Shown one piece after another: positions 2,303 to 16,160 of a stretch of 16,160 nt of DNA. This DNA is from an uncultured Candidatus Saccharibacteria bacterium. Its GTDB lineage: Bacteria; Patescibacteriota; Minisyncoccia; Sungbacterales; JACQCQ01. A program made the translations under genes and the position numbers. The stretch covers positions 1-16,160 of the forward strand of contig CAYRYI010000007.1 of the NCBI GenBank assembly GCA_964428455.1, written 5' to 3'. Position 1 is the first letter of the stretch. Every line of letters begins with the position of its first letter. The notes under the pieces were generated by a model. It was not told where the DNA came from. It did no database searches and worked only from the letters and a program-made list of their open reading frames with translations.

Positions 2303-3097
2303 ATGAAAGTGCTTATCTTCGGCGACATCTTCGGCCGACCGGGCCGAGAGGCGCTGGCAAAAATTCTGCCGCAATGGAAAAAAGAATTCGCGCCGGATTT
2401 GGTAATTGCCAACGGCGAGAATTTGTCGCACGGCCGGGGCATCAGTGAAACTACAATCGCCGAAATTCGCGCGGCCGGCGTTGATGTCATAACCGGCGGG
2501 AACCATATTCTTGAGGGAAAAAATTCCGACGCATTGCTTAACGACGAAAGTCTAAAGCTTATACGCCCGATAAACTTTATCCCCTCCCTGCCGGGGCGCG
2601 GGTGGCTTTTGATAAACGTAGCCGGTGTTGAGGTTCTTGTAATTAATGCCATCGCCCAGACTCACATGCGCTCGCAATACGATTCGCCGTATCTGGCGAT
2701 TGAGAACTTGCTAAAGCAAAATGACGAAGGCTCAAAGACGAAAGCCATCATTATTGACTGGCACGCCGAGACGACATCGGAAAAGATGGTGCTCGGCTGG
2801 TGGCTGGACGGAAAAGTTTCACTGGTCTATGGGACACACACTCATACACCAACAGCTGACGAGCGGATCCTCCCGCAGGGCACCGGTTTTATATCGGACA
2901 TTGGCATGACCGGGGCGCATAATTCCGTGATTGGCGAGGACCCGGGCCTCCGCATTGATATTCTGATCCATCAAAAGCAGACGAAGACCGACGTGGCCGC
3001 CGCTCCGCCTTATGAGGCGAACGCCATCATTGCCGAGATTGACACCGATACCGGCAAGTGCGCCAGAATCGAGAGGCTTCGTCAAATCCTTGCCTAA
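2303..3097 (+). CDS. ymdB: YmdB-like metallophosphoesterase (2',3'-cNMP phosphodiesterase family, TIGR00282-like)
   Basis: The ORF track starts at 2276, but the conserved N-terminus MKVLIFGDIFGRPGR begins at the ATG at 2303. Motifs GDIFG, GNH and GTHTHxPT are present. It sits directly downstream of rny, as in Firmicutes. Confidence 0.85.
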   Translation: MKVLIFGDIFGRPGREALAKILPQWKKEFAPDLVIANGENLSHGRGISETTIAEIRAAGVDVITGGNHILEGKNSDALLNDESLKLIRPINFIPSLPGRGWLLINVAGVEVLVINAIAQTHMRSQYDSPYLAIENLLKQNDEGSKTKAIIIDWHAETTSEKMVLGWWLDGKVSLVYGTHTHTPTADERILPQGTGFISDIGMTGAHNSVIGEDPGLRIDILIHQKQTKTDVAAAPPYEANAIIAEIDTDTGKCARIERLRQILA

Positions 3098-3780: not shown

Positions 3781-5469
3781 CTAGTAATAAATTCCCCGAG
3801 TTATCTCAAGAGCGAATGGCTCATCTTTGTTCCCAAGGAATAGCGCATCCTTTTTGAGTGTTAGTTCATGCAAAAAGTCCGGAGTCAGTTTTCTGTCATT
3901 TAGTTTTTCCAATACTTCGTCATAGAGAGTTTTAATCTCCTGCAAATGCTTCATCTCAATTTCATTCAATTCTACGTCAGACCCAGGCACTCGTCCTGTT
4001 TGCAACATCTCAACAATAAGAGGATACCGCCAAGTTTCTTTATCGATTTGAAATTCACTTCGGTCAGCTCTCTGATAGATTTTCGTAATTAAATCTCGCG
4101 CAAAAACTCCGGGGCCTGAAGCGCCCTCGCCCCAGGGATTGAAATGAGCCCAATCGAACGGCGCAAGAGGAATATAGTTATATCTGCGGACACCGGAAAT
4201 TTCATCCCGAACCTCCGGCCGTAATTGCGCATATCTAGTAATGGCTTCATCCATATACTCTTTGATAGCTAGGTGCTCTTCCCACCACTTTTCGCGGCGC
4301 TCGGCGATGATTCGGTCATTTTCCTGACGCTGCTGCTCTCTCCGCTGGCGTTCTTTCTCTAGCCCAACCCTATCCCGTTCTTCTCGGTCAGCTTTTTCCT
4401 TCTGCGCCTTCTGCTGTTTTTCCCGCTCTACCCTCTTTTTATCCTCCTGGGATTTAGTTATTGCATTAGGGATTGTAGTACCGCTAAAGAAGTCCTTGCA
4501 CAAACGCTTAAGCGTTTCAGTGGCCTCGTCGCCCAATAAGCCAGTTTCTGAATTTATCCGAGAAAAAATTTCATCTAAGGACCTAAGTCTTGCTTGTAAA
4601 GCATCTGCTGTTTTTTTATCTACCTTAGTTTCTCTGGCTATTTCTTCCAAAGCTTCGCCTACCGCAGCCATTCGGAGAGCAACGACTGAGTAAAAAGATT
4701 TTGACTCGGGATCTTTAGCTTCCGTTTTTATAATTTGTCTGAAAACATCTTGTGTTCTTGTGAATCCTCGGACAATTGACCCAACCCTATCAGCGAACTT
4801 TGTTAGGAAGGGATCGGTTGTACCGTATTTGCTGGCAAGATAAAAACCAATCCCATCAATGGCGCACTCCTTCAAGGTGGCATCTATAGCTTCTCGAGCG
4901 CGGTCTCGGTGCCGTGGCTCGATGGTATTCATCAATGAATCAATATCTGCCGCCCGTTTTTGAAGGAATCTCCCAGTTATATTCTCGAGAGACCAATCAA
5001 CCAAGTGCCCAACTTCATGAGGCCCAACCCAATCCACCAGCTTTTCTCTTTTCTGAATTTCTTTTAAATCGGTGCCCATTTCTATACTAATATGATCCGG
5101 CAAGGGGTGAACCCCGACTTGTAAACGTTGCTCGATTCTTAATGATTGCTTCAAGCCCATCCCAACCGAAACAGACCCAATTGCCGTGCCGTGTTCTGCT
5201 TCGGCAATTCCCGCAATATGATGCAAATCAACACCGCTTTCTTCCTGGTATAAATTCCGGAGATACTCTATTTTCGCGCTAACAACACCAAGAAGGTACT
5301 CTTTTCGTACCTCCTCAACAGCGGCGTTCTTGTTTTTCTCTTCTTCGATCTGAGTATTTGCTTCCTCGTAGTTCTCTGCTTCTCCAACCTCAACTTTGGA
5401 ACGAAGAATCTCAGCTTCTTCTCGAGCCTCTTTAAGCGAATATCTGCCCTCACCACCTTCTGGATTCAT
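3781..5469 (-). CDS. Large hypothetical protein with HExxH zinc-metallopeptidase motif and a highly charged coiled-coil segment
   Basis: 562-aa uninterrupted ORF. It has a HEVGHLVDW motif around residue 150 and a long E/K/R-rich heptad-like stretch (KRVEREKQQKAQKEKADREERDR...EQQRQENDR). Its AT-rich codon usage differs from the housekeeping block. TATACT lies 7 nt upstream of the ATG and there is no SD. Confidence 0.65.
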   Translation of the reverse strand: MNPEGGEGRYSLKEAREEAEILRSKVEVGEAENYEEANTQIEEEKNKNAAVEEVRKEYLLGVVSAKIEYLRNLYQEESGVDLHHIAGIAEAEHGTAIGSVSVGMGLKQSLRIEQRLQVGVHPLPDHISIEMGTDLKEIQKREKLVDWVGPHEVGHLVDWSLENITGRFLQKRAADIDSLMNTIEPRHRDRAREAIDATLKECAIDGIGFYLASKYGTTDPFLTKFADRVGSIVRGFTRTQDVFRQIIKTEAKDPESKSFYSVVALRMAAVGEALEEIARETKVDKKTADALQARLRSLDEIFSRINSETGLLGDEATETLKRLCKDFFSGTTIPNAITKSQEDKKRVEREKQQKAQKEKADREERDRVGLEKERQRREQQRQENDRIIAERREKWWEEHLAIKEYMDEAITRYAQLRPEVRDEISGVRRYNYIPLAPFDWAHFNPWGEGASGPGVFARDLITKIYQRADRSEFQIDKETWRYPLIVEMLQTGRVPGSDVELNEIEMKHLQEIKTLYDEVLEKLNDRKLTPDFLHELTLKKDALFLGNKDEPFALEITRGIYY

Positions 5470-5675
5470 ATGTTCAAGTATACCATCAGACTCTTCTGAC
5501 CTCTGAAAATAAATTCAGAATTCAGAACAGCGGACGAGTGAGCATCACTCGCCAGTGTTTAACGTGCCTTCGCACGGTGCTGTGGTCTCGCTCGCATGTT
5601 ATTCGGGAATGGCTAGTCCCTTACTTATCCATGCGAATCCCCACTTACGTCGGCACACGACGGCCCCCGCCGCGG

Positions 5676-6044
5676 CTACCTCCTCGACAGATGCTCGCGC
5701 TCACAAGGGTCCATATTGGTATGGCCCTCGAAGCAGCGCTCTGCATCAGTGAAGAGATCGCCCTCCGGATCCCACTGCTCGAATGGCAACTCATTCTCGC
5801 CGTTAGCGTCAAAGACTATGAGTCCGACGCGAGGCGAGAAGTACCAAACGTGCTCGCGGGCATCCGTGCGGCTGGTGAAGACGTAGGCCTTGGTCATCCG
5901 GTACCATCTCTCCCCTTCGGGGGAATAGACGGTAACACACGGAATGCCGAGTTCATCACAGCGCTTGAAAAACGCCGTGGTTTCCTCGTCATTGACCTCG
6001 CCCATACGCCGGAGCGACTCCAGCCGTTGGCGGATCTCGTCCAT
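5676..6044 (-). CDS. Hypothetical small acidic protein (122 aa)
   Basis: Perfect SD AAAGGAGG 7 nt upstream of the ATG. It is third in a same-strand run of three small ORFs. Confidence 0.55.
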   Translation of the reverse strand: MDEIRQRLESLRRMGEVNDEETTAFFKRCDELGIPCVTVYSPEGERWYRMTKAYVFTSRTDAREHVWYFSPRVGLIVFDANGENELPFEQWDPEGDLFTDAERCFEGHTNMDPCEREHLSRR

Positions 6045-6097
6045 GGCACACCTCCTTTCGTTTTCCCGGTTGCCAGCCGAGAAGTTTCGTAAGTGAG

Positions 6098-6319
6098 TTA
6101 GGGTGCGCGCTCTACGATCACCGTAGTGACGTAGTACGCGTGACGCGCGATTCCATTCATCCAGCTCGTCTCCGTCCGATAATCCATAGTGCCATGGAGC
6201 GCGAGACTGGTAGAGGCGGATACAACTCGCCAGCCCTTGCCGAGCTCCTGAAGACGATTCTCGAGCTCGTCCTCCGGCGTGAAGTTAAGCGATCTTACGA
6301 TGATAACCTTCTGTTTCAT
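6098..6319 (-). CDS. Hypothetical small protein (73 aa)
   Basis: SD AAAGGAGA, 7-nt spacer, ATG. N-terminus MKQKVIIVRSLNFTPEDELENRLQELGKGW. Confidence 0.5.
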   Translation of the reverse strand: MKQKVIIVRSLNFTPEDELENRLQELGKGWRVVSASTSLALHGTMDYRTETSWMNGIARHAYYVTTVIVERAP

Positions 6320-6356
6320 CGCGGTCTCCTTTCTTCCGCCGTTAGCGGAAATTTAA

Positions 6357-6509
6357 TCAGTCTGGGATGGAACCGAGTAGTGTATTCAACTCCTGATATG
6401 CTACTTCCATGGCCCTCTTCGCCAGCTCGATCTCTCCACGCTTCAATGCCGACTTCGCGCCCGCGAGAAGAACACCGATCTCTGCGAGTAGAACCTGATC
6501 GACTTCCAT
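6357..6509 (-). CDS. Hypothetical 50-aa helical peptide (below the 60-aa ORF-track threshold)
   Basis: AAGGAGA SD 7 nt upstream of an ATG. Translation is MEVDQVLLAEIGVLLAGAKSALKRGEIELAKRAMEVAYQELNTLLGSIPD*. It lies directly upstream of the 73-aa ORF. Confidence 0.4.
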   Translation of the reverse strand: MEVDQVLLAEIGVLLAGAKSALKRGEIELAKRAMEVAYQELNTLLGSIPD

Positions 6510-6536
6510 TTCTTGATCTCCTTAATTTTCAAGTGA

Positions 6537-6603
6537 AAGAACACGAGCGATTAATTTCGCTCTTCTGAATCTTCAAAACAGGAAAACTCGGAAGAGCGGC
6601 AGA
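6537..6603. repeat. Structured repeat family, copy A
   Basis: AAGAACACGAGCG-ATTAATTTC-GCTCTTCTGA-[22 nt]-GGAAGAGCGGC. Read on the - strand it is hairpin, then a GAGCG..CGCTC hairpin, then a U-rich tract, ending 25 nt before the SD of the 50-aa ORF. Confidence 0.6.
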
Positions 6604-6872
6604 CGATGTTCTGTTCGTCCGCCCTTTTGTGGGGCAGTTTTTTACGCTACGGGAGTTGGCCCAGGTCCTTCGACCGACCCCGTGCTGGAGGAGCGAACTG
6701 GAACTTTTCGCTCACAGCCGGGATCTTCCCGCCGCAACCTTCGGGCTAAGGATTACTTCGCCCTAATTAAGCCCGATCCAGATAATCGCCCCCTTTCAAT
6801 TCGGTTGTTATTAGGAACCCTGCGAGCGACCCCATCCTTACTCCGCCGGATGGCGGATTCGGACGGGCAAGC

Positions 6873-6929
6873 ATTTCGCTCTTCCGGGGGGCCGTTCTTA
6901 AAATTCGGCCCTCCAGAAGAGCGGGCGAG
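6873..6929. repeat. Structured repeat family, copy D
   Basis: ATTTCGCTCTTCC-[GGGGGGCCGttcttaaaattCGGCCCTCC]-AGAAGAGCGGGCGAG. Same outer stem as B and C, but a different inner hairpin. Confidence 0.55.
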
Positions 6930-6997
6930 TTTTATAAATGGGACCTCGATCGTGCCGCCTAAGCAGGCTCGCGAGGTATCGCCCCCCAATATAGATA

Positions 6998-7084
6998 AAG
7001 AACACGAGCGCAAGGCGCTCTTCTGACATCCGCATTTTGGTTGCGGAGTTTAGAAGAGCGGGCGAATGAGTCTTCTTATTCGCC
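6998..7084. repeat. Structured repeat family, copy B
   Basis: AAGAACACGAGCG...GCTCTTCTGA-[CATCCGCAttttggtTGCGGAG]-TTTAGAAGAGCGGGCGAATGAGTC, plus a second hairpin GGCGAAT...ATTCGCC. Positions 7016-7073 are identical to 8156-8213. Confidence 0.7.
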
Positions 7085-7239
7085 GCGGATTTTGTTGAAG
7101 CGGTTCCGTATAACCGCTCGAGATGGCAGCGGGGTGGAGGGACTCGCAGACCTTCTGTTGCCACGCCGTTCTCACGGCGCCGGATATCCAAGGTTAGTTG
7201 CTCTCCTCGGACTCCAGTAGGCCACTGAATCGCAGCGAT

Positions 7240-7497
7240 TCAGTCCAAGACTATCTGCCTTGGTGCGGGGTTGGGTTCTTCAACCCAAACCATGCAATAG
7301 CCGCCGTGTTGCAATTTGCATTGCAACCACCAGCGCCGCGGCACCACGCCAGAAGCCTCGACCTCCTCGACGCAATACCGGTTGACCGTGTAAAGAGCGG
7401 GATATTGCTCCCACCATTTACGCGCATCTTCCAGTACTTGCTCCGACTGGAGGAGCACGAGAGACAAATCGTCTCTCTGCATACAGAAGCGGTACAT
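7240..7497 (-). CDS. Hypothetical Trp/Cys-rich small protein (85 aa)
   Basis: SD TAAGGGGGTGAGTT directly before the ATG, the same context as the 84-aa ORF at 8058. An overlapping + strand ORF (7198-7788) has no such signal. Confidence 0.45.
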   Translation of the reverse strand: MYRFCMQRDDLSLVLLQSEQVLEDARKWWEQYPALYTVNRYCVEEVEASGVVPRRWWLQCKLQHGGYCMVWVEEPNPAPRQIVLD

Positions 7498-7803
7498 AAC
7501 TCACCCCCTTATTTGATTATTCCTCTCGAGTACCATCCCAGACGCGCCCTCGCGCGTGCTCGGCAGTCGCTCGGAGTACATTCACTCCTCGTTTGTAAAG
7601 ATCCCGCCGAAATTCTCAAAACTTTTGAGATCTTCGGTAGGAGGTCGAGATTTTATTTCGCTCGACCGATGGAGAGCTTTACCGTTTCTATGGCTCTCCT
7701 AGCCTGTTTCGGCTTTTCAGCCGCTCCGACATTGCGCTGGAGTTTTTCGTCGGACACCGCAGGCTCCGACTATCCGATACCTGACTAGTCTGGGACCTAG
7801 TCA

Positions 7804-8058
7804 TCATCGGCTGGGCTCGCGGCGCTTGCCGCGAGGGGGCCACTTCTCCGCTGTCGCGAGGATCTCGCGAGCGAAGAAATAATCCCCTATGTGTTCCGGA
7901 CGATCCGGCGGGATACGAACTCCGCGCGGATGACGGACCACGATGCCCTCTTTCCAACACCGATGGCCGTAGCCGGGAACAACCTTGCGCCATCGGTTCG
8001 GGAACTCCCCATCGCTGAGCGATGAGGTGTCCACAAGGACGTACCGGGGCTCTTTCAC
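7804..8058 (-). CDS. Hypothetical small basic protein (84 aa, GTG start)
   Basis: AAAGGGGGTGAAAAG-GTG. It is preceded on the - strand by repeat copy C. Confidence 0.4.
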   Translation of the reverse strand: MKEPRYVLVDTSSLSDGEFPNRWRKVVPGYGHRCWKEGIVVRHPRGVRIPPDRPEHIGDYFFAREILATAEKWPPRGKRREPSR

Positions 8059-8093
8059 CTTTTCACCCCCTTTTTTTGGTTATTTTTCATTAA

Positions 8094-8224
8094 GAACTTC
8101 GAGCGATTCCCTCTTTCATCCCGACAATTCGGGATTTCGGAGGGGGTAAGTATTTCGCTCTTCTGACATCCGCATTTTGGTTGCGGAGTTTAGAAGAGCG
8201 GGCGAATGAGTCCTCCCACTCGCC
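8094..8224. repeat. Structured repeat family, copy C (extended, carrying extra inserted hairpins)
   Basis: GAACTTCGAGCGATT-[CCCTC...CCCGACAATTCGGG...GAGGGGG insert]-ATTTCGCTCTTCTGA...AGAAGAGCGGGCGAATGAGTC, then a GGCGA..TCGCC hairpin. The 58-bp core is identical to copy B. Confidence 0.7.
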
Positions 8225-8261
8225 ACCCTTGGCATCGTCCCGGACATCTCCGGAATCGCGC

Positions 8262-8657
8262 CTAACGCCGTGGACACGGCGGAATGGCTATATCTCGCCA
8301 CTCACGAGTTTGATTGCGGTTGGAGTGAAGTTCCCATACCGGTTTCCCATAAGAGCGCCCCAACTCGCCCTGATGGTATCCGCCTGCTTGGCGGACCCGG
8401 TTCCCTATGCCCCGCGCTCTATCTAGCGCGGCCTCGATGTGGGACGTGCACGCGGCCTTGGCCACGGCTCGTTCAACCACACCCCCTCTCCGCCCTTTGC
8501 AATGGCGGCGGCTTCGGCATAGGTTTCTCTGGTACGGCGCCCGCGCGAGCGCCAGGGCGATGGTAGCTAGCCGCCGCTCCAGAGATCCTGCGCCCCCGAC
8601 GCTGCGAAAGGGCCGACAGGAGGATAGAGGTAAAACTACGTTATCAATGTTCGACAT
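8262..8657 (-). other. GC-rich (~65%) transcribed block immediately downstream of a consensus - strand promoter. It is either a leaderless 131-aa Arg/Gly/Ala-rich ORF or, more likely, a structured non-coding RNA
   Basis: TTGACA-16-TATAAT is positioned so that transcription would start at or near the ATG at 8657. The putative protein is low-complexity and no alternative frame is convincing. Confidence 0.3.
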
Positions 8658-8662
8658 CGTGC

Positions 8663-8690
8663 ATTATACTCGCCTGCAGAATTTTGTCAA
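8663..8690 (-). promoter_or_regulatory. Near-consensus sigma70 promoter on - strand (TTGACA-16-TATAAT)
   Basis: Reverse complement of 8685-8690 is TTGACA and of 8663-8668 is TATAAT. It sits in an AT-rich hub and is divergent from the + strand promoter at 8829. Confidence 0.6.
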
Positions 8691-8828
8691 GTCCATTTGA
8701 CACTTTATGATACGATAAATAGGTTTATTTGGCTTAAATACTTGCTAAATAAGATAATAGATGTTTATATGTGTTAACAGTTATCGGCATACTAAAATAA
8801 AGACAATAAATTGTTTTGTCCTTACCTA

Positions 8829-8857
8829 TTGACAAATATTTAGCTACGGACTATACT
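8829..8857 (+). promoter_or_regulatory. Near-consensus sigma70 promoter on + strand (TTGACA-17-TATACT)
   Basis: -35 at 8829-8834 and -10 at 8852-8857. It is followed by a GC-rich structured region ending at a strong terminator. Confidence 0.6.
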
Positions 8858-8863
8858 TGAGTT

Positions 8864-9207
8864 GCTCTTCAAAATCGCCTTTTCCGCGGGCAGGAATGCC
8901 CGCATAGGCCCATGAACCCTTACCCGGGGGCGCTCTGCCACCGGTATCGCTCCCGGAGGGGGTGAGATCATGCTCGACGGTTAACCAGCTGACCGTCGAC
9001 TGGCGGGGCCTAAGCCCCGCCAGGGGAATGGCTGGGATACCCGAGAAGAAAGGAGGAAAAGGGGATGTTCGACGGATAGTTCTCGTTTTCGCGGCGCGAC
9101 CTAGACGGCTGCGCCGGGCGGCGACAGCAAGTCGCCGTCGAAGGAAGTCCTTCATCGGAAAGGGCCCGGTTCGCGCATTGCGCGGCCGGGCCCTCATAAT
9201 TTTTATT
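8864..9207 (+). ncRNA. Candidate ~340-nt structured ncRNA of unassigned family
   Basis: Promoter to terminator with no credible ORF. It contains many GC hairpins (GCGGGCA-GGAA-TGCCCGC, CGGGGCC-TAA-GCCCCG, GACGGTtaaccagcTGACCGTC, GGCGAC-agcaa-GTCGCC). The terminal hairpin GGGCCCGGttCGCGC-ATT-GCGCGgCCGGGCCC at 9162-9193 is followed by a T-rich tract. Confidence 0.4.
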
Positions 9208-9218
9208 CGAGTTAAATC

Positions 9219-9968
9219 CTAGACGTGATCTGCGCCAAGCCAAGCTAGTTCAAAGACTAGGCGCATTGTATTTGCTATTTCCGGTTCTTCTATAATAGCC
9301 GTCATCGACTGACCGCGCAGCGTTGTAAGTGCAACCCTGGAACTATAAATTGATATGTCGGCTGAAAACGGAAACTTATCTTTCGGCACGAAACGTCTTT
9401 CTCCCGAGCTTACAAATCCCCCAAAAGGCCCATCGGCGCTTGTATAAATGGCTCTGATTTTAATTCCGAGTTCATCTCTCTTTTTAATAAATGCTTTGGT
9501 TTGTTCTAGCGGAAACAAATTTTTAACCTCATCGAAAGAATAAATTGCCAGAACTTCTTTCGCCCCAGATGAGAGAAGGTCTTCTCTGACGGCCTCTCTT
9601 CCTTCCGACCCTTCAAAGAATCTTACCCGCGGCCTGTCTCGCGAACCGGAAAATAACGCGTCCAGTTCCGGTAATATCTTTGAAAATTCATTTTCTTTTG
9701 TCCTTATTTCCTCTTCCTGCGTTCTGAATATTCTAAGCAAAACGCTCGGATTTTCCGCAGCGAATAAGATTTTGTTTTTCTTTTCAACCGTACTTACGAC
9801 CCCGCGCCTTTTGAGCGTTTCGAGGACGACATAAGTCGTCGCCCGATTGACTTTGGCCTTTGCGGCAATATCCTGAACTGCCGCGCTCCCCAATTCCAAG
9901 AGCGCGAGATAAACTCGCGCCTCTTTATCCGAAAATCCCAATTTCTTCAGCTCAAGCTCAAGCGGCAT
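9219..9968 (-). CDS. TrmB-family HTH transcriptional regulator
   Basis: N-terminal winged HTH EARVYLALLELGSAAVQDIAAKAKVNRATTYVVLETLKRRGVV, typical of TrmB. 249 aa, with a C-terminal sensing domain. Confidence 0.75.
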   Translation of the reverse strand: MPLELELKKLGFSDKEARVYLALLELGSAAVQDIAAKAKVNRATTYVVLETLKRRGVVSTVEKKNKILFAAENPSVLLRIFRTQEEEIRTKENEFSKILPELDALFSGSRDRPRVRFFEGSEGREAVREDLLSSGAKEVLAIYSFDEVKNLFPLEQTKAFIKKRDELGIKIRAIYTSADGPFGGFVSSGERRFVPKDKFPFSADISIYSSRVALTTLRGQSMTAIIEEPEIANTMRLVFELAWLGADHV

Positions 9969-10062: not shown

Positions 10063-10275
10063 TTAGGCGCTGTCCCAGTCGTTTTGAGTAACCCCGGCTT
10101 GCCGAAGTATTTCAGAAACGAGGTGTTTCGAAATATCTCCGCGGTGCGGATTCGGTATGCGGATTTTCAGATCGTTGTTTGCCATGAATAAATGCCGGCC
10201 GCCCGAATAGGGGCCGTCAAATCCCAAGCGGCGCAATTTCTGAACCAGTTTCCGCCACGAAACGTTTCTAGGCAT
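10063..10275 (-). CDS. hicA: HicA-family mRNA interferase toxin
   Basis: 70 aa. Its pattern matches HicA/YcfA (WRKLVQKLRRLGF...GGRHLFMA...IRIPNPHRGDISKHLVSEILRQAGV). It overlaps upstream hicB by 8 nt. Confidence 0.8.
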   Translation of the reverse strand: MPRNVSWRKLVQKLRRLGFDGPYSGGRHLFMANNDLKIRIPNPHRGDISKHLVSEILRQAGVTQNDWDSA

Positions 10276-10513
10276 TTCTTACCAGTTGCCGGCGATCAAC
10301 TTTAAATTCAAAACCCGGCACTTTTTCTCGCGCCCGCACCTTAAGAAAAATCCAGTCCTCTAAAACTTCTCGAAGTTCCGCCCGGCAACTTTCAAGACTT
10401 TTTGTGTTTGCCCAAACCCCCTTTAGTCCCGGTATCTCGCCAAAATACGTGCGATCTTTCAAAAGCTTGTACTTGGCTCCTTTAAGCTTTTTATCGATGA
10501 ATTCACTAAGCAT
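10268..10513 (-). CDS. hicB: HicB-family antitoxin
   Basis: 81 aa. YFGEIPGLKGVWANTKSLESCRAELREVLEDWI matches the HicB/UPF0150 fold. It is paired with hicA. Confidence 0.7.
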   Translation of the reverse strand: MLSEFIDKKLKGAKYKLLKDRTYFGEIPGLKGVWANTKSLESCRAELREVLEDWIFLKVRAREKVPGFEFKVDRRQLVRNA

Positions 10514-13334: not shown

Positions 13335-13748
13335 ATGAGTAATAAGTCAGAATTTTACAGAGCGGTCAGAGATGAAACTTATCGTACCAGAGAAGAGATA
13401 CGAGATAGAATAACCGATGAATACATCCTCGGGTTATTCGAGGGAGAAGGCTGTTTTGGGAACATGCGTGACGGCAGAGGAAACCAGGTGCCAGCGTTCA
13501 TGCTAAAGATGCATGTACGAGATAAGGAGCTTATTGAGGGCATAAGGGATTATTTAGGAGTGCCCGACAGAGTCTACGAATATAAGCACGGCGGTAGGCA
13601 TTATGCCCTACTTCAGATCAGAGACATTGGGACACTGAAAAATAAGATCGTACCAATCTTTCATACCAAGCTTCTTGGTCATAAAGGTACACAGTTGGAG
13701 GCGTGGTTAAAAAAATATCCGTACCTTAGGGGTCTACATCAAAAGTGA
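13335..13748 (+). CDS. Free-standing single-motif LAGLIDADG homing endonuclease (I-CreI-like size)
   Basis: 137 aa. ILGLFEGEGCF is the LAGLIDADG motif and ...KIVPIFHTKLLGHKGTQLEAWL is the typical C-terminal region. The gene is strongly AT-rich relative to its neighbours and is not embedded in any recognisable intron or intein. Confidence 0.75.
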   Translation: MSNKSEFYRAVRDETYRTREEIRDRITDEYILGLFEGEGCFGNMRDGRGNQVPAFMLKMHVRDKELIEGIRDYLGVPDRVYEYKHGGRHYALLQIRDIGTLKNKIVPIFHTKLLGHKGTQLEAWLKKYPYLRGLHQK

Positions 13749-13821: not shown

Positions 13822-13900
13822 ATATGTCCTATATAAATAGAGCTGGGAAGTGGGTAACGAAGGGATCGAACCTTCGGCCTCTGTCGTGTGAAGACAGCGC

Positions 13901-13927
13901 TCTGCTTCACCCTCCCACCTTTTTAGT
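13901..13927. repeat. Inverted repeat arm (partner at 14171-14191) forming a ~20-bp helix in the - strand transcript
   Basis: The + strand sequence ACTAAAGGTGGGAGGGTAAGC at 14171-14191 is the reverse complement of CACCCTCCCACCTTTTTAGT at 13908-13927, with small bulges. Confidence 0.6.
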
Positions 13928-14132: not shown

Positions 14133-14168
14133 TGAAAATGCAACGCTCTACCACTGAGCTATGCGCCC
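14133..14168 (-). tRNA. tRNA-Glu(UUC) 5' half (exon 1)
   Basis: GGGCGCA-TA-GCTC-AGTGGTA-GAGC-G-TTGCA-TTTTCA. The acceptor 5' strand is exactly complementary to TGCGCCC in the 3' half. Confidence 0.65.
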
Positions 14169-14274
14169 TTGACTAAAGGTGGGAGGGTAAGCTGAGCTAG
14201 TCACCCTTATAAATCATACTTAGGCTATTGTAGCCAATATGAATTACCGAGACAAATTAAGCTTATCCTAAATA

Positions 14275-14380: not shown

Positions 14381-15484
14381 ATGAGAAGGCATCTTCGGCT
14401 GTACTATCCGTTCTACGCCACGGCCTTGATCGTCCTCGCATTTCTCCCGGGGTTCCTCGGGATCGGATGGGGGGAGATCCTAGGCTGGATGTCCCCCGAT
14501 GACCCTATCTTTTTCGGAATGGTAACACTCGGGGTCATCTCATTCATCGGGTTCCTGGTGATTCCCGCCGCATTCAGGTACGGCGCAATCGTGATCGTGC
14601 CGCCCATGAGCGCGGGGCTCGTCACTCATCTGGGGAAGCCGGCATGGCTTATCGCCAATGCCGATCTTCATCGGTACGAGTGGCTAAAGGGGCCGGAGTT
14701 CTTGCGGCGAATTGCCGGAGGACTCCGTATCGTCGGGATCCCCCGAATGCACAAGCTTCTCACCGTCAAGGTGACGAAGCTTGCCACGGTAGTGGAGAGG
14801 ACAGACGGCAATCTGACCACCTTCGAGCTCCAATTCGGCGCGCCGGAGGACGTGAAGTTCGTGTCACTGCGGGACCAGGTCCTGCAACTGGTCTTTTCTG
14901 ACCCGATCACCGCAAATGGCATTAGGCTAAAGATCTCGATGCGGGTTTTCTATCGCATCGACGACCCCAGGAAATTCTTCCTGGCGGCCGAGGACTGGAC
15001 GCGGATCGTGGTGGATCGGATCCGGCCGCTCGTGCGGCACATCGTAAGCTCGGAGACGTGGCCGGAGATCAACAAGCGTCGCACGGAACTCTCGGGCGGT
15101 ATCATGCGGGCGGTACAGGATCCAAGCCGTCCCATGCTTCGCGCAGGGGGTGTAGAAGACAATCGGTCCGTCGTTAAGTTCCTAATGCAGGAGTATGGCC
15201 TGATCATCCAGGCCTTCGAGTTCGGCGACATGCTCCCCGCCAAGTCCGACATCATCGAGGCGGGAGAACAGGCCTTCGAGGAAGCCCAGCGGATGCTGGG
15301 CGCCAGGGAGGTGGCTAAGTTCCTCCGCGACGAAAGCGCTGAAGAAGTAGCGGCGCGGCGCGAGGCCATGCGGCTCGCCATCGCGACGAAGGCCGCCGAG
15401 AACGTCAAGAATATCATCGTGGGCGGGCCCGTGCAGGAGATTTTCCAGCAGGTCTTTGGCCCAAGAGAGGAGCCAGGAAGATGA
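14381..15484 (+). CDS. SPFH/band-7 (stomatin/prohibitin-like) membrane protein
   Basis: Two N-terminal TM helices, then an SPFH-like core (...VTHLGKPAWL...TTFELQFGAPEDVKFVSLRDQVL...RVFYRIDDPRKFF...). The start is taken at the ATG at 14381, which has a strong SD; the ORF track begins further upstream. Confidence 0.6.
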   Translation: MRRHLRLYYPFYATALIVLAFLPGFLGIGWGEILGWMSPDDPIFFGMVTLGVISFIGFLVIPAAFRYGAIVIVPPMSAGLVTHLGKPAWLIANADLHRYEWLKGPEFLRRIAGGLRIVGIPRMHKLLTVKVTKLATVVERTDGNLTTFELQFGAPEDVKFVSLRDQVLQLVFSDPITANGIRLKISMRVFYRIDDPRKFFLAAEDWTRIVVDRIRPLVRHIVSSETWPEINKRRTELSGGIMRAVQDPSRPMLRAGGVEDNRSVVKFLMQEYGLIIQAFEFGDMLPAKSDIIEAGEQAFEEAQRMLGAREVAKFLRDESAEEVAARREAMRLAIATKAAENVKNIIVGGPVQEIFQQVFGPREEPGR

Positions 15485-15960
15485 TCGAGAGTCTGTGGGC
15501 AAGCGCAAGCGGCTACACCGCTGGGTCTGTCTCGGAATTCATCAAGGCGATCCCGTGGAGATATGTTATCGGCGGGCTTGTCATCGTCCTGCCGCCATTG
15601 ATCTTCTTCTGGAGCCGGCAGCGGGGATCCGCTTCTGCCAGCGGGCGGGCTGGAACCGCGCCCGCGCCAGCCAAGAAGGACGACAAGTTCAGGCTGGAGT
15701 CGCTGGCGCCGGTAGTGATGCTGGCGCTAGTGCTTGCCGCCATCGTCACACTCGCCGCCGCTATCGGGACCCATAATCCCGGCCTCTGGATGGGGTTCTG
15801 GGTTCTCGCGGCGGTAACGGCCATAGTTTCTACGGCCGGCGGGAAGTGGCTCGGGTACGCCATAACCTATGTGGCGCTTCTCGGGTCACTTTCGCTCTTC
15901 ATTGGGCTGCTCGTCGCGGCCCAGACCATTCCGTTCTTCAACAAGGTCCAGCTGCCCTAG
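15481..15960 (+). CDS. Small membrane protein, translationally coupled to the SPFH gene (ATGA overlap)
   Basis: 159 aa. Hydrophobic helices VIGGLVIVLPPLIFFW, VVMLALVLAAIVTLAAAI and LWMGFWVLAAVTAIV...LLGSLSLFIGLLVAA. The pairing resembles an SPFH-partner operon, though no NfeD-like OB-fold is evident. Confidence 0.5.
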   Translation: MIESLWASASGYTAGSVSEFIKAIPWRYVIGGLVIVLPPLIFFWSRQRGSASASGRAGTAPAPAKKDDKFRLESLAPVVMLALVLAAIVTLAAAIGTHNPGLWMGFWVLAAVTAIVSTAGGKWLGYAITYVALLGSLSLFIGLLVAAQTIPFFNKVQLP

Positions 15961-16041: not shown

Positions 16042-16160
16042 TATCAACAACCCATTTATTATTTATAGTTTATGTCTCACCCCTGTCTCTTCTTGCTATT
16101 ATTTCACGCTATAGCCACTTTGACTGAATAATTTGGTTGATGGGGTTTTGAGCGCGGCCT

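Follow-up and report, generated by a model that had tools for sequence, protein, structure and literature searches.

The plus-strand RNA described here, RNA1 (8864-9207), lies in a 16,160-nucleotide (nt) stretch of DNA, referred to as the window, whose coordinates are used throughout. The window comes from a Patescibacteria (Candidate Phyla Radiation, CPR) contig from aquifer metagenomes and belongs to a Parcubacteria/Sungbacteria-like groundwater genome. Two divergent promoters, P1 on the plus strand and P2 on the minus strand, flank an AT-rich hub and are predicted to drive RNA1 and a minus-strand block, RNA2, respectively. Our best reading is that RNA1 is a small RNA bearing tiny open reading frames (ORFs), that it represents an undescribed and phylogenetically broad family of Patescibacteria, and that it is closest in design to mccA, the gene for the heptapeptide precursor of microcin C. 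Judging from sequence and its conservation, we put at roughly 60% the probability that RNA1 belongs to an undescribed family of tiny-ORF RNAs within a three-part Patescibacteria module, in which the hub is associated with a TrmB/TrmBL2-like gene. No description of an RNA1-type RNA in Patescibacteria was found in the literature. The features of the module are as follows, with SD denoting a Shine-Dalgarno sequence and 5' ends placed from the promoters as predictions.

8690-8663, minus strand: promoter P2, TTGACA-16-TATAAT (12/12), driving RNA2 and a small-ORF array.
8669-8828, no strand assigned: AT-rich hub between the promoters, 29.4% GC.
8685-8702, no strand assigned: inverted repeat TGTCAA-N6-TTGACA, a candidate operator overlapping the P2 -35 hexamer.
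8814-8836, no strand assigned: imperfect inverted repeat TTTTGTCC-N7-TTGACAAA, a candidate operator overlapping the P1 -35 hexamer.
8829-8857, plus strand: promoter P1, TTGACA-17-TATACT (11/12), driving RNA1.
8864-9207, plus strand: RNA1, a tiny-ORF RNA of 344 nt, convergent with trmB; fold z = -7.4; no Rfam family; homologous RNAs in relatives.
8864-8969, plus strand: lineage-specific 5' domain of RNA1, the first ~105 nt being 86% identical in L092 and L097.
8955-8965 (SD1) and 8970-8984 (ORF), plus strand: SD1 GGAGGGGGTGA and mini-ORF1, ATG CTC GAC GGT TAA (MLDG).
8974-8999 and 9000-9023, plus strand: two stable hairpins directly 3' of mini-ORF1, from folding.
9050-9056 (SD2) and 9065-9079 (ORF), plus strand: SD2 AAGGAGG, inside AGAAAGGAGG, and mini-ORF2, ATG TTC GAC GGA TAG (MFDG).
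9085-9160, plus strand: 3' hairpins of RNA1, from folding, which differ between species.
9162-9207, plus strand: intrinsic terminator, an 8-bp GC stem around a second stem and then a T run.
9219-9968, minus strand: trmB-like regulator gene, 249 amino acids (aa), convergent with RNA1; Pfam TrmB PF01978, E = 3.9e-17.
8180-8657, minus strand: RNA2, a GC-rich noncoding RNA or long leader of ~480 nt from P2; fold z = -5.9.

A first-pass annotation of this DNA had described two divergent, near-consensus sigma70 promoters, and both were confirmed, with 12 of 12 consensus positions on the minus strand, 11 of 12 on the plus strand and 139 bp between the starts of the two -35 hexamers. P2 was the sole perfect 12/12 promoter in the 16-kb window, and five promoter-like sites were counted in the region compared to 1.5 +/- 1.3 in shuffled sequences, with the caveat that these genomes are not poor in near-consensus promoters (~1.8 per 10 kb across the loci analysed). 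P1 was kept in all close relatives and, over all loci, both promoters scored at least 11/12 in 35 non-redundant hubs, which had a median -35 to -35 spacing of 137 bp and a mean GC content of 30%. The proposal that the hub acts as a control region was borne out by its position and architecture, kept in dozens of relatives, and by an identity of 91-92% to the hubs of L092 and L097 despite only 68-69% for the trmB DNA. Each -35 hexamer forms a half-site of a TGTCAA-N6-8-TTGACA inverted repeat, and such repeats recur in relatives. The TGTCAA-N6-TTGACA palindrome was present in L092, L094, L095, L097, L098 and L099 and in 11 of the 35 hubs, and extra TTGACA or TGTCAA copies occurred in 22 of the 35.

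Among ten strain contigs (L001-L010) with over 99% identity to the window, a single change fell within RNA1 (8909 C>T). Two hub haplotypes nevertheless segregate in this otherwise >99% identical population (compare L001, L003, L006, L008 and L009), differing at 12 positions in 108 nt (8676-8783), with an A on the plus strand involved in every one; the sister species L092 and L097 are equally distant from both. They can be read as old alleles or as recombination, and we leave them unexplained. Targeted variation of the type produced by diversity-generating retroelements was considered and rejected, given a window with neither template repeat nor reverse transcriptase, patches of single-nucleotide polymorphisms (SNPs) elsewhere, and haplotypes equidistant from the sister species. 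The dense strain SNP patches at 15476-15786 and 16116-16132, within a small membrane-protein ORF (15481-15960) and just past it, suggest recombination tracts.

RNA1 starts with GCTCTTC and has a GC content of 62.2%, compared to an earlier estimate of about 65%. The stable hairpins and strong terminator first noted by eye were upheld by folding: RNA1 folds with -185 kcal/mol (z = -7.4 against dinucleotide shuffles, with z = -5.0 for the opposite strand), and the terminator stem GGGCCCGG...CCGGGCCC at 9162-9193 is followed by TCATAATTTTTATT, the terminator as a whole ending 11 nt short of the trmB stop codon. The scan tool left this terminator unflagged because its T run begins 6 nt past the stem. 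A homologous hairpin followed by TCATCTTTTTT was present in L092 and L097, and the GGCCCGG...CCGGGCC terminator was kept in L011, L092, L094, L097, L174, L175 and L178. The 4-codon mini-ORF with a strong SD, previously reported as the only coding feature of RNA1, is indeed there (GGAGGGGGTGAGATC-ATG CTC GAC GGT TAA, 8955-8984), but it is not the only one, a second lying at 9065-9079. The SD2 region AGAAAGGAGG is complementary to the 3' end of bacterial 16S rRNA in its canonical form. Pairing was predicted between 8911-8921 (CAUGAACCCUU) and SD1/AUG1 and between 8866-8885 and SD2/AUG2, through which, in the lineage of the window, L092 and L097, the conserved 5' domain is expected to mask both sites of initiation. 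SD sequestration as a family-wide device (riboswitch or thermosensor gating) was rejected, with mini-ORF SD/AUG pairing no higher than in 150 ordinary genes.

Homologous loci were gathered with TrmB-like homologues as anchors, giving ~160 loci (L-numbers are labels of related loci and contigs). The layout of a trmB-like gene, a convergent RNA1, an AT-rich hub and a divergent transcript was conserved in every close relative with enough flanking sequence, and also in many more distant members of the Patescibacteria, ultra-small bacteria of groundwater. Where TrmB identity was 56-66% and enough flank was available (14 distinct loci), every locus had a convergent promoter of at least 11/12 located 250-530 nt past the trmB stop and facing trmB, a divergent partner 126-149 bp away, and an RNA1 ending in a terminator beside the trmB stop. 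The primary sequence of RNA1 was conserved only among the closest species; nhmmer searches of 80 genome loci that used just the RNA1 or RNA2 of the window did not find RNA1 homologues, and profile nhmmer recovered only the closest species. RNA1 homology was recognised only through synteny and promoter position.

Family-wide, the elements that recurred in RNA1 were a strong SD, an ORF of 3-7 codons (consensus Met-Gly-Asp/Glu-x) and, 3' of the stop codon, a stable hairpin. An SD followed by a [A/G]TG-GG ORF of at most 12 codons was found on the sense strand of 42 of 81 non-redundant RNA1 candidates, compared to 3 on the antisense strand and a mean of 2.2 (maximum 9) in shuffles. Residue 2 was Gly in 51 of 86 SD-led mini-ORFs, and among the 80 with a third sense codon residue 3 was Asp in 36 and Glu in 8. 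Codon choice varied at both positions (GGC 26, GGA 15 and GGT 10 at codon 2; GAC 16, GAT 9 and GAA 7 at codon 3), as were alternative starts (ATG 44, GTG 7) and stops (TAA 23, TAG 21, TGA 7). A stop within eight sense codons was present in frame at 50 of 55 sites (91%) compared to 24 of 110 (22%) in the other two frames. Orthologous ORF1 copies varied mostly at third positions (window, L092 and L097; L094, L175 and L011; L015, L110 and L018), with ATG GGT GAT GGC TGA in L092 and ATG GGC GAT GGT TAA in L097 compared to ATG CTC GAC GGT TAA in the window, and MGDEGN, MGDEGD and MGDEG in L015, L110 and L018 written with GGC, GGA or GGT and with GAT or GAC codons. The Leu/Phe variant of the window (ATG-YTC-GAC-GGW-TAR) recurred as the second ORF of L095 (ATG CTC GAC GGA TAG), and second mini-ORFs were present in other relatives too. 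The selection on the mini-ORFs is of the coding type: wobble variation, interchange of ATG and GTG and of stop codons, and in-frame stops point to a translated frame and not an RNA motif, and argue that the mini-ORFs are translated.

The pattern is also specific to its position. Of 84 matches to SD-[A/G]TGGGNGAY mini-ORFs in 1.28 Mb of loci, 80 fell at the RNA1 position, within 800 nt downstream of trmB homologues; this count keeps overlapping matches to a site separate and so exceeds the number of distinct sites. The other four represent two sites, one in L085 and one, counted three times, in L159, both just upstream of trmB with their own terminator, encoding MDD with MGDTH (L085) and MGD with MAD (L159). 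Two compact RNA1 members, L062 (~80 nt) and L086 (~110 nt), have no parts other than a leader, an SD, a mini-ORF and a terminator, indicating that the mini-ORF is the functional core. The mini-ORF is thus no incidental feature: SD-led tiny ORFs turned out to be the sole RNA1 feature kept across Patescibacteria, with two in the window.

A hairpin after the stop codon accompanies these ORFs. The 50 nt following the mini-ORF stop had a mean z of -2.7, and all 12 two-ORF relatives had an inter-ORF hairpin of 10-21 bp that was GC-rich and unrelated in sequence (z -2.3 to -7.1). The search for covariation in homologs, suggested at the outset, was carried out with RNAalifold on the window, L092 and L097; the post-stop helices were retained and 14 pairs were altered on both sides.

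The first-pass annotation had not noticed the link to the convergent TrmB-family gene that faces RNA1. The encoded protein has the same sequence as one named "Parcubacteria group bacterium GW2011_GWB1_52_7" and is present on many near-identical groundwater contigs, including GCA_001004435.1 (L004). Its AlphaFold2 model (mean predicted local distance difference test score, pLDDT, 84.9) combines a TrmB winged helix at the N-terminus with a coiled-coil and a C-terminal domain, the arrangement of TrmB/TrmBL2, and Foldseek aligned it over its full length with TrmBL2 (5bqt/5bpd, E ~1e-12) and also with TrmB (3qph, 2.6e-9). A full-length match to the archaeal chromatin protein TrmBL2 is an unusual relationship for a bacterial protein. 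The linkage of trmB and RNA1 was conserved, and the adjacent TrmBL2-like protein is a candidate regulator that probably controls the hub.

The module, conserved in Patescibacteria, comprises a TrmB/TrmBL2-like gene, the AT-rich hub with its pair of divergent sigma-70 consensus promoters, and the two transcripts that these are predicted to drive. In the proposed mechanism RNA1 would not be a classical noncoding RNA but a transcript dedicated to tiny ORFs, arranged as two cistrons in tandem. Each cistron consists of a very strong SD, a 4-codon ORF (MLDG, MFDG) and a stop at the foot of a stable GC-rich hairpin, and the intrinsic terminator just before the convergent trmB stop would close the transcript. 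Ribosomes would load on the strong SDs, make a small, acidic peptide of 3-7 residues and terminate against the hairpin. By analogy with mccA, ribosome occupancy probably stabilises RNA1 and aids termination before trmB; mccA gives an abundant, ribosome-bound transcript of 105-107 nt that is stabilised by ribosomes and shows ribosome-induced termination (PMC4231749). The TrmBL2-like protein would probably repress both promoters through the TGTCAA/TTGACA inverted repeats that include the -35 hexamers. As to the output, we weight about equally the peptide itself and the success or failure of the ribosome on the N-terminal Gly/Asp codons. The peptide is a candidate effector because residues 2 and 3 are conserved and the ORF is duplicated in tandem, and the translation event is a candidate sensor because the small, acidic N-terminus fits sequences that pause or destabilise ribosomes in E. 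coli, where N-terminal acidic residues have this effect and bulky residues offset it (PMC11282234; bioRxiv 10.1101/2021.02.02.429294). A more specific version, in which the Patescibacteria family encodes a ribosomally made tri- to heptapeptide (fMet-Gly-Asp-x) from a consensus promoter under the control of a TrmBL2-like protein and serves as an intracellular or intercellular signal or as an RNA that traps ribosomes and senses the state of translation, is put forward tentatively, as a possibility we would not favour at present. Cells of this kind are reported to contain only tens of ribosomes.

Several other explanations of the transcript were weighed. That RNA1 is a diverged housekeeping RNA, namely transfer-messenger RNA (tmRNA), RNase P RNA, signal recognition particle (SRP) RNA or 6S RNA, has a negligible probability. 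The Rfam check proposed for the plus transcript was run and returned no known housekeeping RNA: RNA1 had no family at the gathering score and nothing meaningful at E <= 10 (8100-9400), the only Rfam matches in the window at the gathering score were tRNAs, and nothing was found at the RNA1 position in 11 related loci. The tmRNA clan (RF00023 and permuted forms) gave no match over 8100-9400 at the gathering score or at E <= 10, covariance models of RNase P RNA, SRP RNA and 6S RNA gave none in the window or at the RNA1 position in the 11 related loci, and ARAGORN found three tRNAs and no tmRNA in the window, in line with the by-eye exclusion of all four RNAs. The likeness to tmRNA comes down to a short 5' sequence in the window copy (GGGGGTGAGATCATGCTCGACGG) and a short ORF, and nothing else; RNA1 differs in having neither a tRNA-like domain nor a tag frame. 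The 5' resemblance, which had been considered noteworthy, is coincidental, since close relatives read ATGGGYGAT at this spot and L038 carries a genuine tmRNA elsewhere (122 bits, 2640-3025) besides a separate RNA1 beside trmB. It is just as improbable that the locus is instead a minus-strand gene of 117 aa (8844-9197). Such a frame is open for 117 codons and was called on GCA_001004435.1 (L004), L005 and L010, but most gene callers skipped it, its product has no Pfam match and the Arg/Pro-rich composition typical of GC-rich non-coding DNA, and L092 and L097 have a disrupted or unrelated frame there (longest open stretches 78 and 92 codons, of different sequence). The call antisense to RNA1 is probably a mis-annotation. 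A purely noncoding structured small RNA (sRNA) or sponge, in which SD-like purine tracts bind the 30S subunit (as stabilising Shine-Dalgarno sequences, STAB-SD) or a protein (as CsrB/RsmZ) and the mini-ORFs are incidental, would account for the very stable fold (z = -7.4), the complementarity of AGAAAGGAGG to the canonical 16S rRNA 3' end, the several GGA motifs and the conserved 5' domain. We nevertheless consider it improbable given the wobble variation, the interchange of ATG/GTG and of stops, and the excess of in-frame stops (91% vs 22%); family-wide only SD, ORF, hairpin and terminator are shared, and L092 and L097 have UCA or UCC in place of the loop GGA at 8890-8898 (hairpin 8885-8903). 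A CsrB/RsmZ-type sponge in particular was rejected, as the loop GGA is unconserved and the family has no repeated GGA-loop unit in common.

The remaining alternative, a sub-variant of the tiny-ORF reading and not exclusive of it, is that RNA1 is a translation-sensing switch and not a peptide gene. Fragile early elongation, responding to Mg2+, energy state or ABC-F proteins, would set, through ribosome occupancy, RNA1 stability or the choice between termination and read-through antisense to trmB, and would thereby close a feedback loop on the regulator. The near-invariant convergent placement relative to trmB means that read-through could act on the regulator, and the convergent layout with a terminator ~10-40 nt from the trmB stop was kept in nearly all loci. 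Peptides of Gly, Ala, Ser and Asp/Glu have the composition reported to maximise N-terminal destabilisation and pausing in E. coli, a strong hairpin stands at the stop codon, and mccA provides a case of ribosome-controlled termination on a tiny ORF. However, the mini-ORF is 100-250 nt from the terminator in many relatives, in two loci the RNA precedes trmB, reads in the same direction and has a terminator of its own, residue 2 in the window lineage is a bulky Leu or Phe, and an alternative anti-terminator pairing was not found. We consider a switch of this kind less likely than not.

With the tiny-ORF RNA family as the preferred reading, the following observations weigh against it. No peptide-modifying enzyme, exporter or receptor was identified. 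The transcription and translation of RNA1 are predicted from sequence signals and conservation only, and binding of the TrmB-like protein to the hub repeats is likewise a prediction. About half of the distant TrmB-anchored loci lacked a promoter or an MG-type ORF under the criteria used. The mini-ORFs of the window itself have Leu or Phe at position 2 and not Gly, and the predicted SD sequestration belongs to the lineage of the window, L092 and L097 and not to the family. Finally, recent transfer instead of constraint could explain why the hub, RNA2 and the RNA1 5' domain are so similar between species.

Comparison with known systems places RNA1 nearest to mccA (E. coli, H. pylori), which shares a short transcript with a strong SD, a tiny ORF and a terminator hairpin. 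The window has this layout with two SD-led 4-codon ORFs and a terminator, and the compact members L062 and L086 reproduce it exactly. The mccA peptide, however, ends in a nucleotidylated Asn, whereas RNA1 peptides end in Gly, Ala, Ser, Lys, Asp, Arg and others, with few in Asn, and neither mccB (ThiF/E1-like) nor export or immunity genes were found by Pfam in ten window ORFs or in the gene tables of L001-L010. MccA sequences are not conserved (PMC6495379), whereas RNA1 peptides of 3-7 residues have conserved Gly2/Asp3, and RNA1 further differs in the two tandem cistrons of its Sungbacteria-type members, its linkage to a TrmB-like gene and its chromosomal location in Patescibacteria. Minigenes (lambda bar; axe-txe) that act through peptidyl-tRNA drop-off likewise have a strong-SD ORF of 2-6 codons working via the ribosome, a layout also found in RNA1, but in the RNA1 family residues 2 and 3 of the peptide are conserved, and the RNA is a conserved gene that stands alone behind a consensus promoter of its own. 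Leader peptides and attenuators (mgtL, ermCL, cat86, trpL) combine a tiny ORF with stable hairpins, and the acidic, small composition recalls the mgtL type; RNA1 is not a leader peptide because its transcription unit contains no downstream gene, the terminator (9162-9207) being followed by the convergent trmB stop at 9219. In the Gram-positive pairs Rgg/SHP, ComR/ComS and PrgX/PrgQ a very small peptide gene lies directly beside, and often convergent with, a regulator gene, as it does here. Those peptides have at least 17 residues, are exported and processed, and act on tetratricopeptide repeat (TPR) regulators, whereas RNA1 products have 3-7 residues with no room for a leader and the adjacent regulator has a TrmBL2-like fold; RNA1 is thus not such a pair, because of the different regulator fold and the absence of a pro-peptide. 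Dual-function sRNAs (RNAIII/hld, SR1/SR1P, SgrS/SgrT) also are structured, sRNA-sized transcripts with a small ORF, but theirs encode 26-43 residues, and across the RNA1 family nothing except the ORF is conserved.

On the other arm of the hub, the minus-strand block had been described as either leaderless-coding or structured RNA. RNA2 was 86-87% identical to L092 and L097 and yet contained 1-nt and 6-nt frame-breaking indels and stops in all frames, which indicates a noncoding RNA or long leader and not a leaderless gene; of the two earlier options the structured RNA stood, as a conserved noncoding block, and the leaderless ORF of 131 aa (8262-8657, minus strand) was rejected as unconserved in relatives. 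RNA2 ends in a CGCTCTTC...GAAGAGCG hairpin (8156-8200) and had no Rfam match, and a search at E <= 10 over 5400-8700 gave nothing credible. A duplex between RNA1 and RNA2 was also rejected, RNAduplex energies being no better than with shuffled RNA2. Downstream of RNA2 a small-ORF array (5676-8058, minus strand) encodes proteins of 122, 73, 50, 85 and 84 aa separated by long structured spacers; these ORFs are fast-evolving, very strong SDs precede at least three of them, and none of the five had a credible Pfam match (best E = 0.03, all below the gathering score). Hairpins of the CGCTCTTC...GAAGAGCG family, with variable interiors, recur between the small ORFs (6558-6598, 6878-6924, 7016-7060, 8156-8200), with related copies in L095, L097 and L174 and a compensatory change in one copy of strain L003 (7030 C>T with 7046 G>A). 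The 84-aa ORF, the first after RNA2, had two relatives only (99% and 70% identical) among 5.8 billion proteins and a weak, distant link to a ~100-aa CxxC family (tblastn E = 0.46), so that its product is at best a remote relative of that family, which occupies the same arm in other lineages. Among loci L011, L013, L027, L043, L044 and L046, the arm opposite RNA1 carries this ~100-aa CxxC...CxxC family, with a ~150-aa family in L027, L044 and L060; Pfam gave no match for the CxxC members of L027 and L044, the N-terminally trimmed L011 ORF or one ~150-aa member (L044).

Further features were recorded around the module. A HicA-toxin/UPF0150 (HicB-like) pair (10063-10513) lies directly upstream of trmB and was called on some strain contigs (e.g., L007) and not on others. 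A phage or mobile origin of RNA1 was rejected, the 5' domain having no match on viral contigs and the single match to the mini-ORF pattern falling within a coding region; the sole hint of a mobile context is a large serine recombinase gene in L174 (106-1449), ~1 kb from the trmB-RNA1-hub module. A side region (13335-13748, 13851-13912, 14137-14172) contains a free-standing LAGLIDADG endonuclease ORF between tRNA genes, a marginal tRNA-like match (29.2 bits) that ARAGORN did not call and, 52 nt away, a fragment resembling tRNA-Val that matches a portion of the real gene at 83% identity.

The locus offers an easily testable case of functional ORFs far below every annotation threshold, and such loci get mis-annotated, as the spurious 117-aa antisense call on a GenBank contig illustrates; RNA1 points to a possible new family for databases of RNAs and small ORFs. 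A large part of bacterial diversity belongs to the CPR/Patescibacteria, whose genomes are tiny and whose regulation and RNA biology are almost unexplored. The module spans Sungbacteria-like to Falkow-, Azam-, Terry- and Berkelbacteria-like genomes, and its retention across these lineages indicates that it is likely to be physiologically important. If the reading holds, the fMet-Gly-Asp-x genes would be among the shortest conserved genes known, and a strong SD followed by three to four small or acidic codons and a roadblock hairpin would constitute a new translational control device, beyond variants of mccA or of leader peptides.

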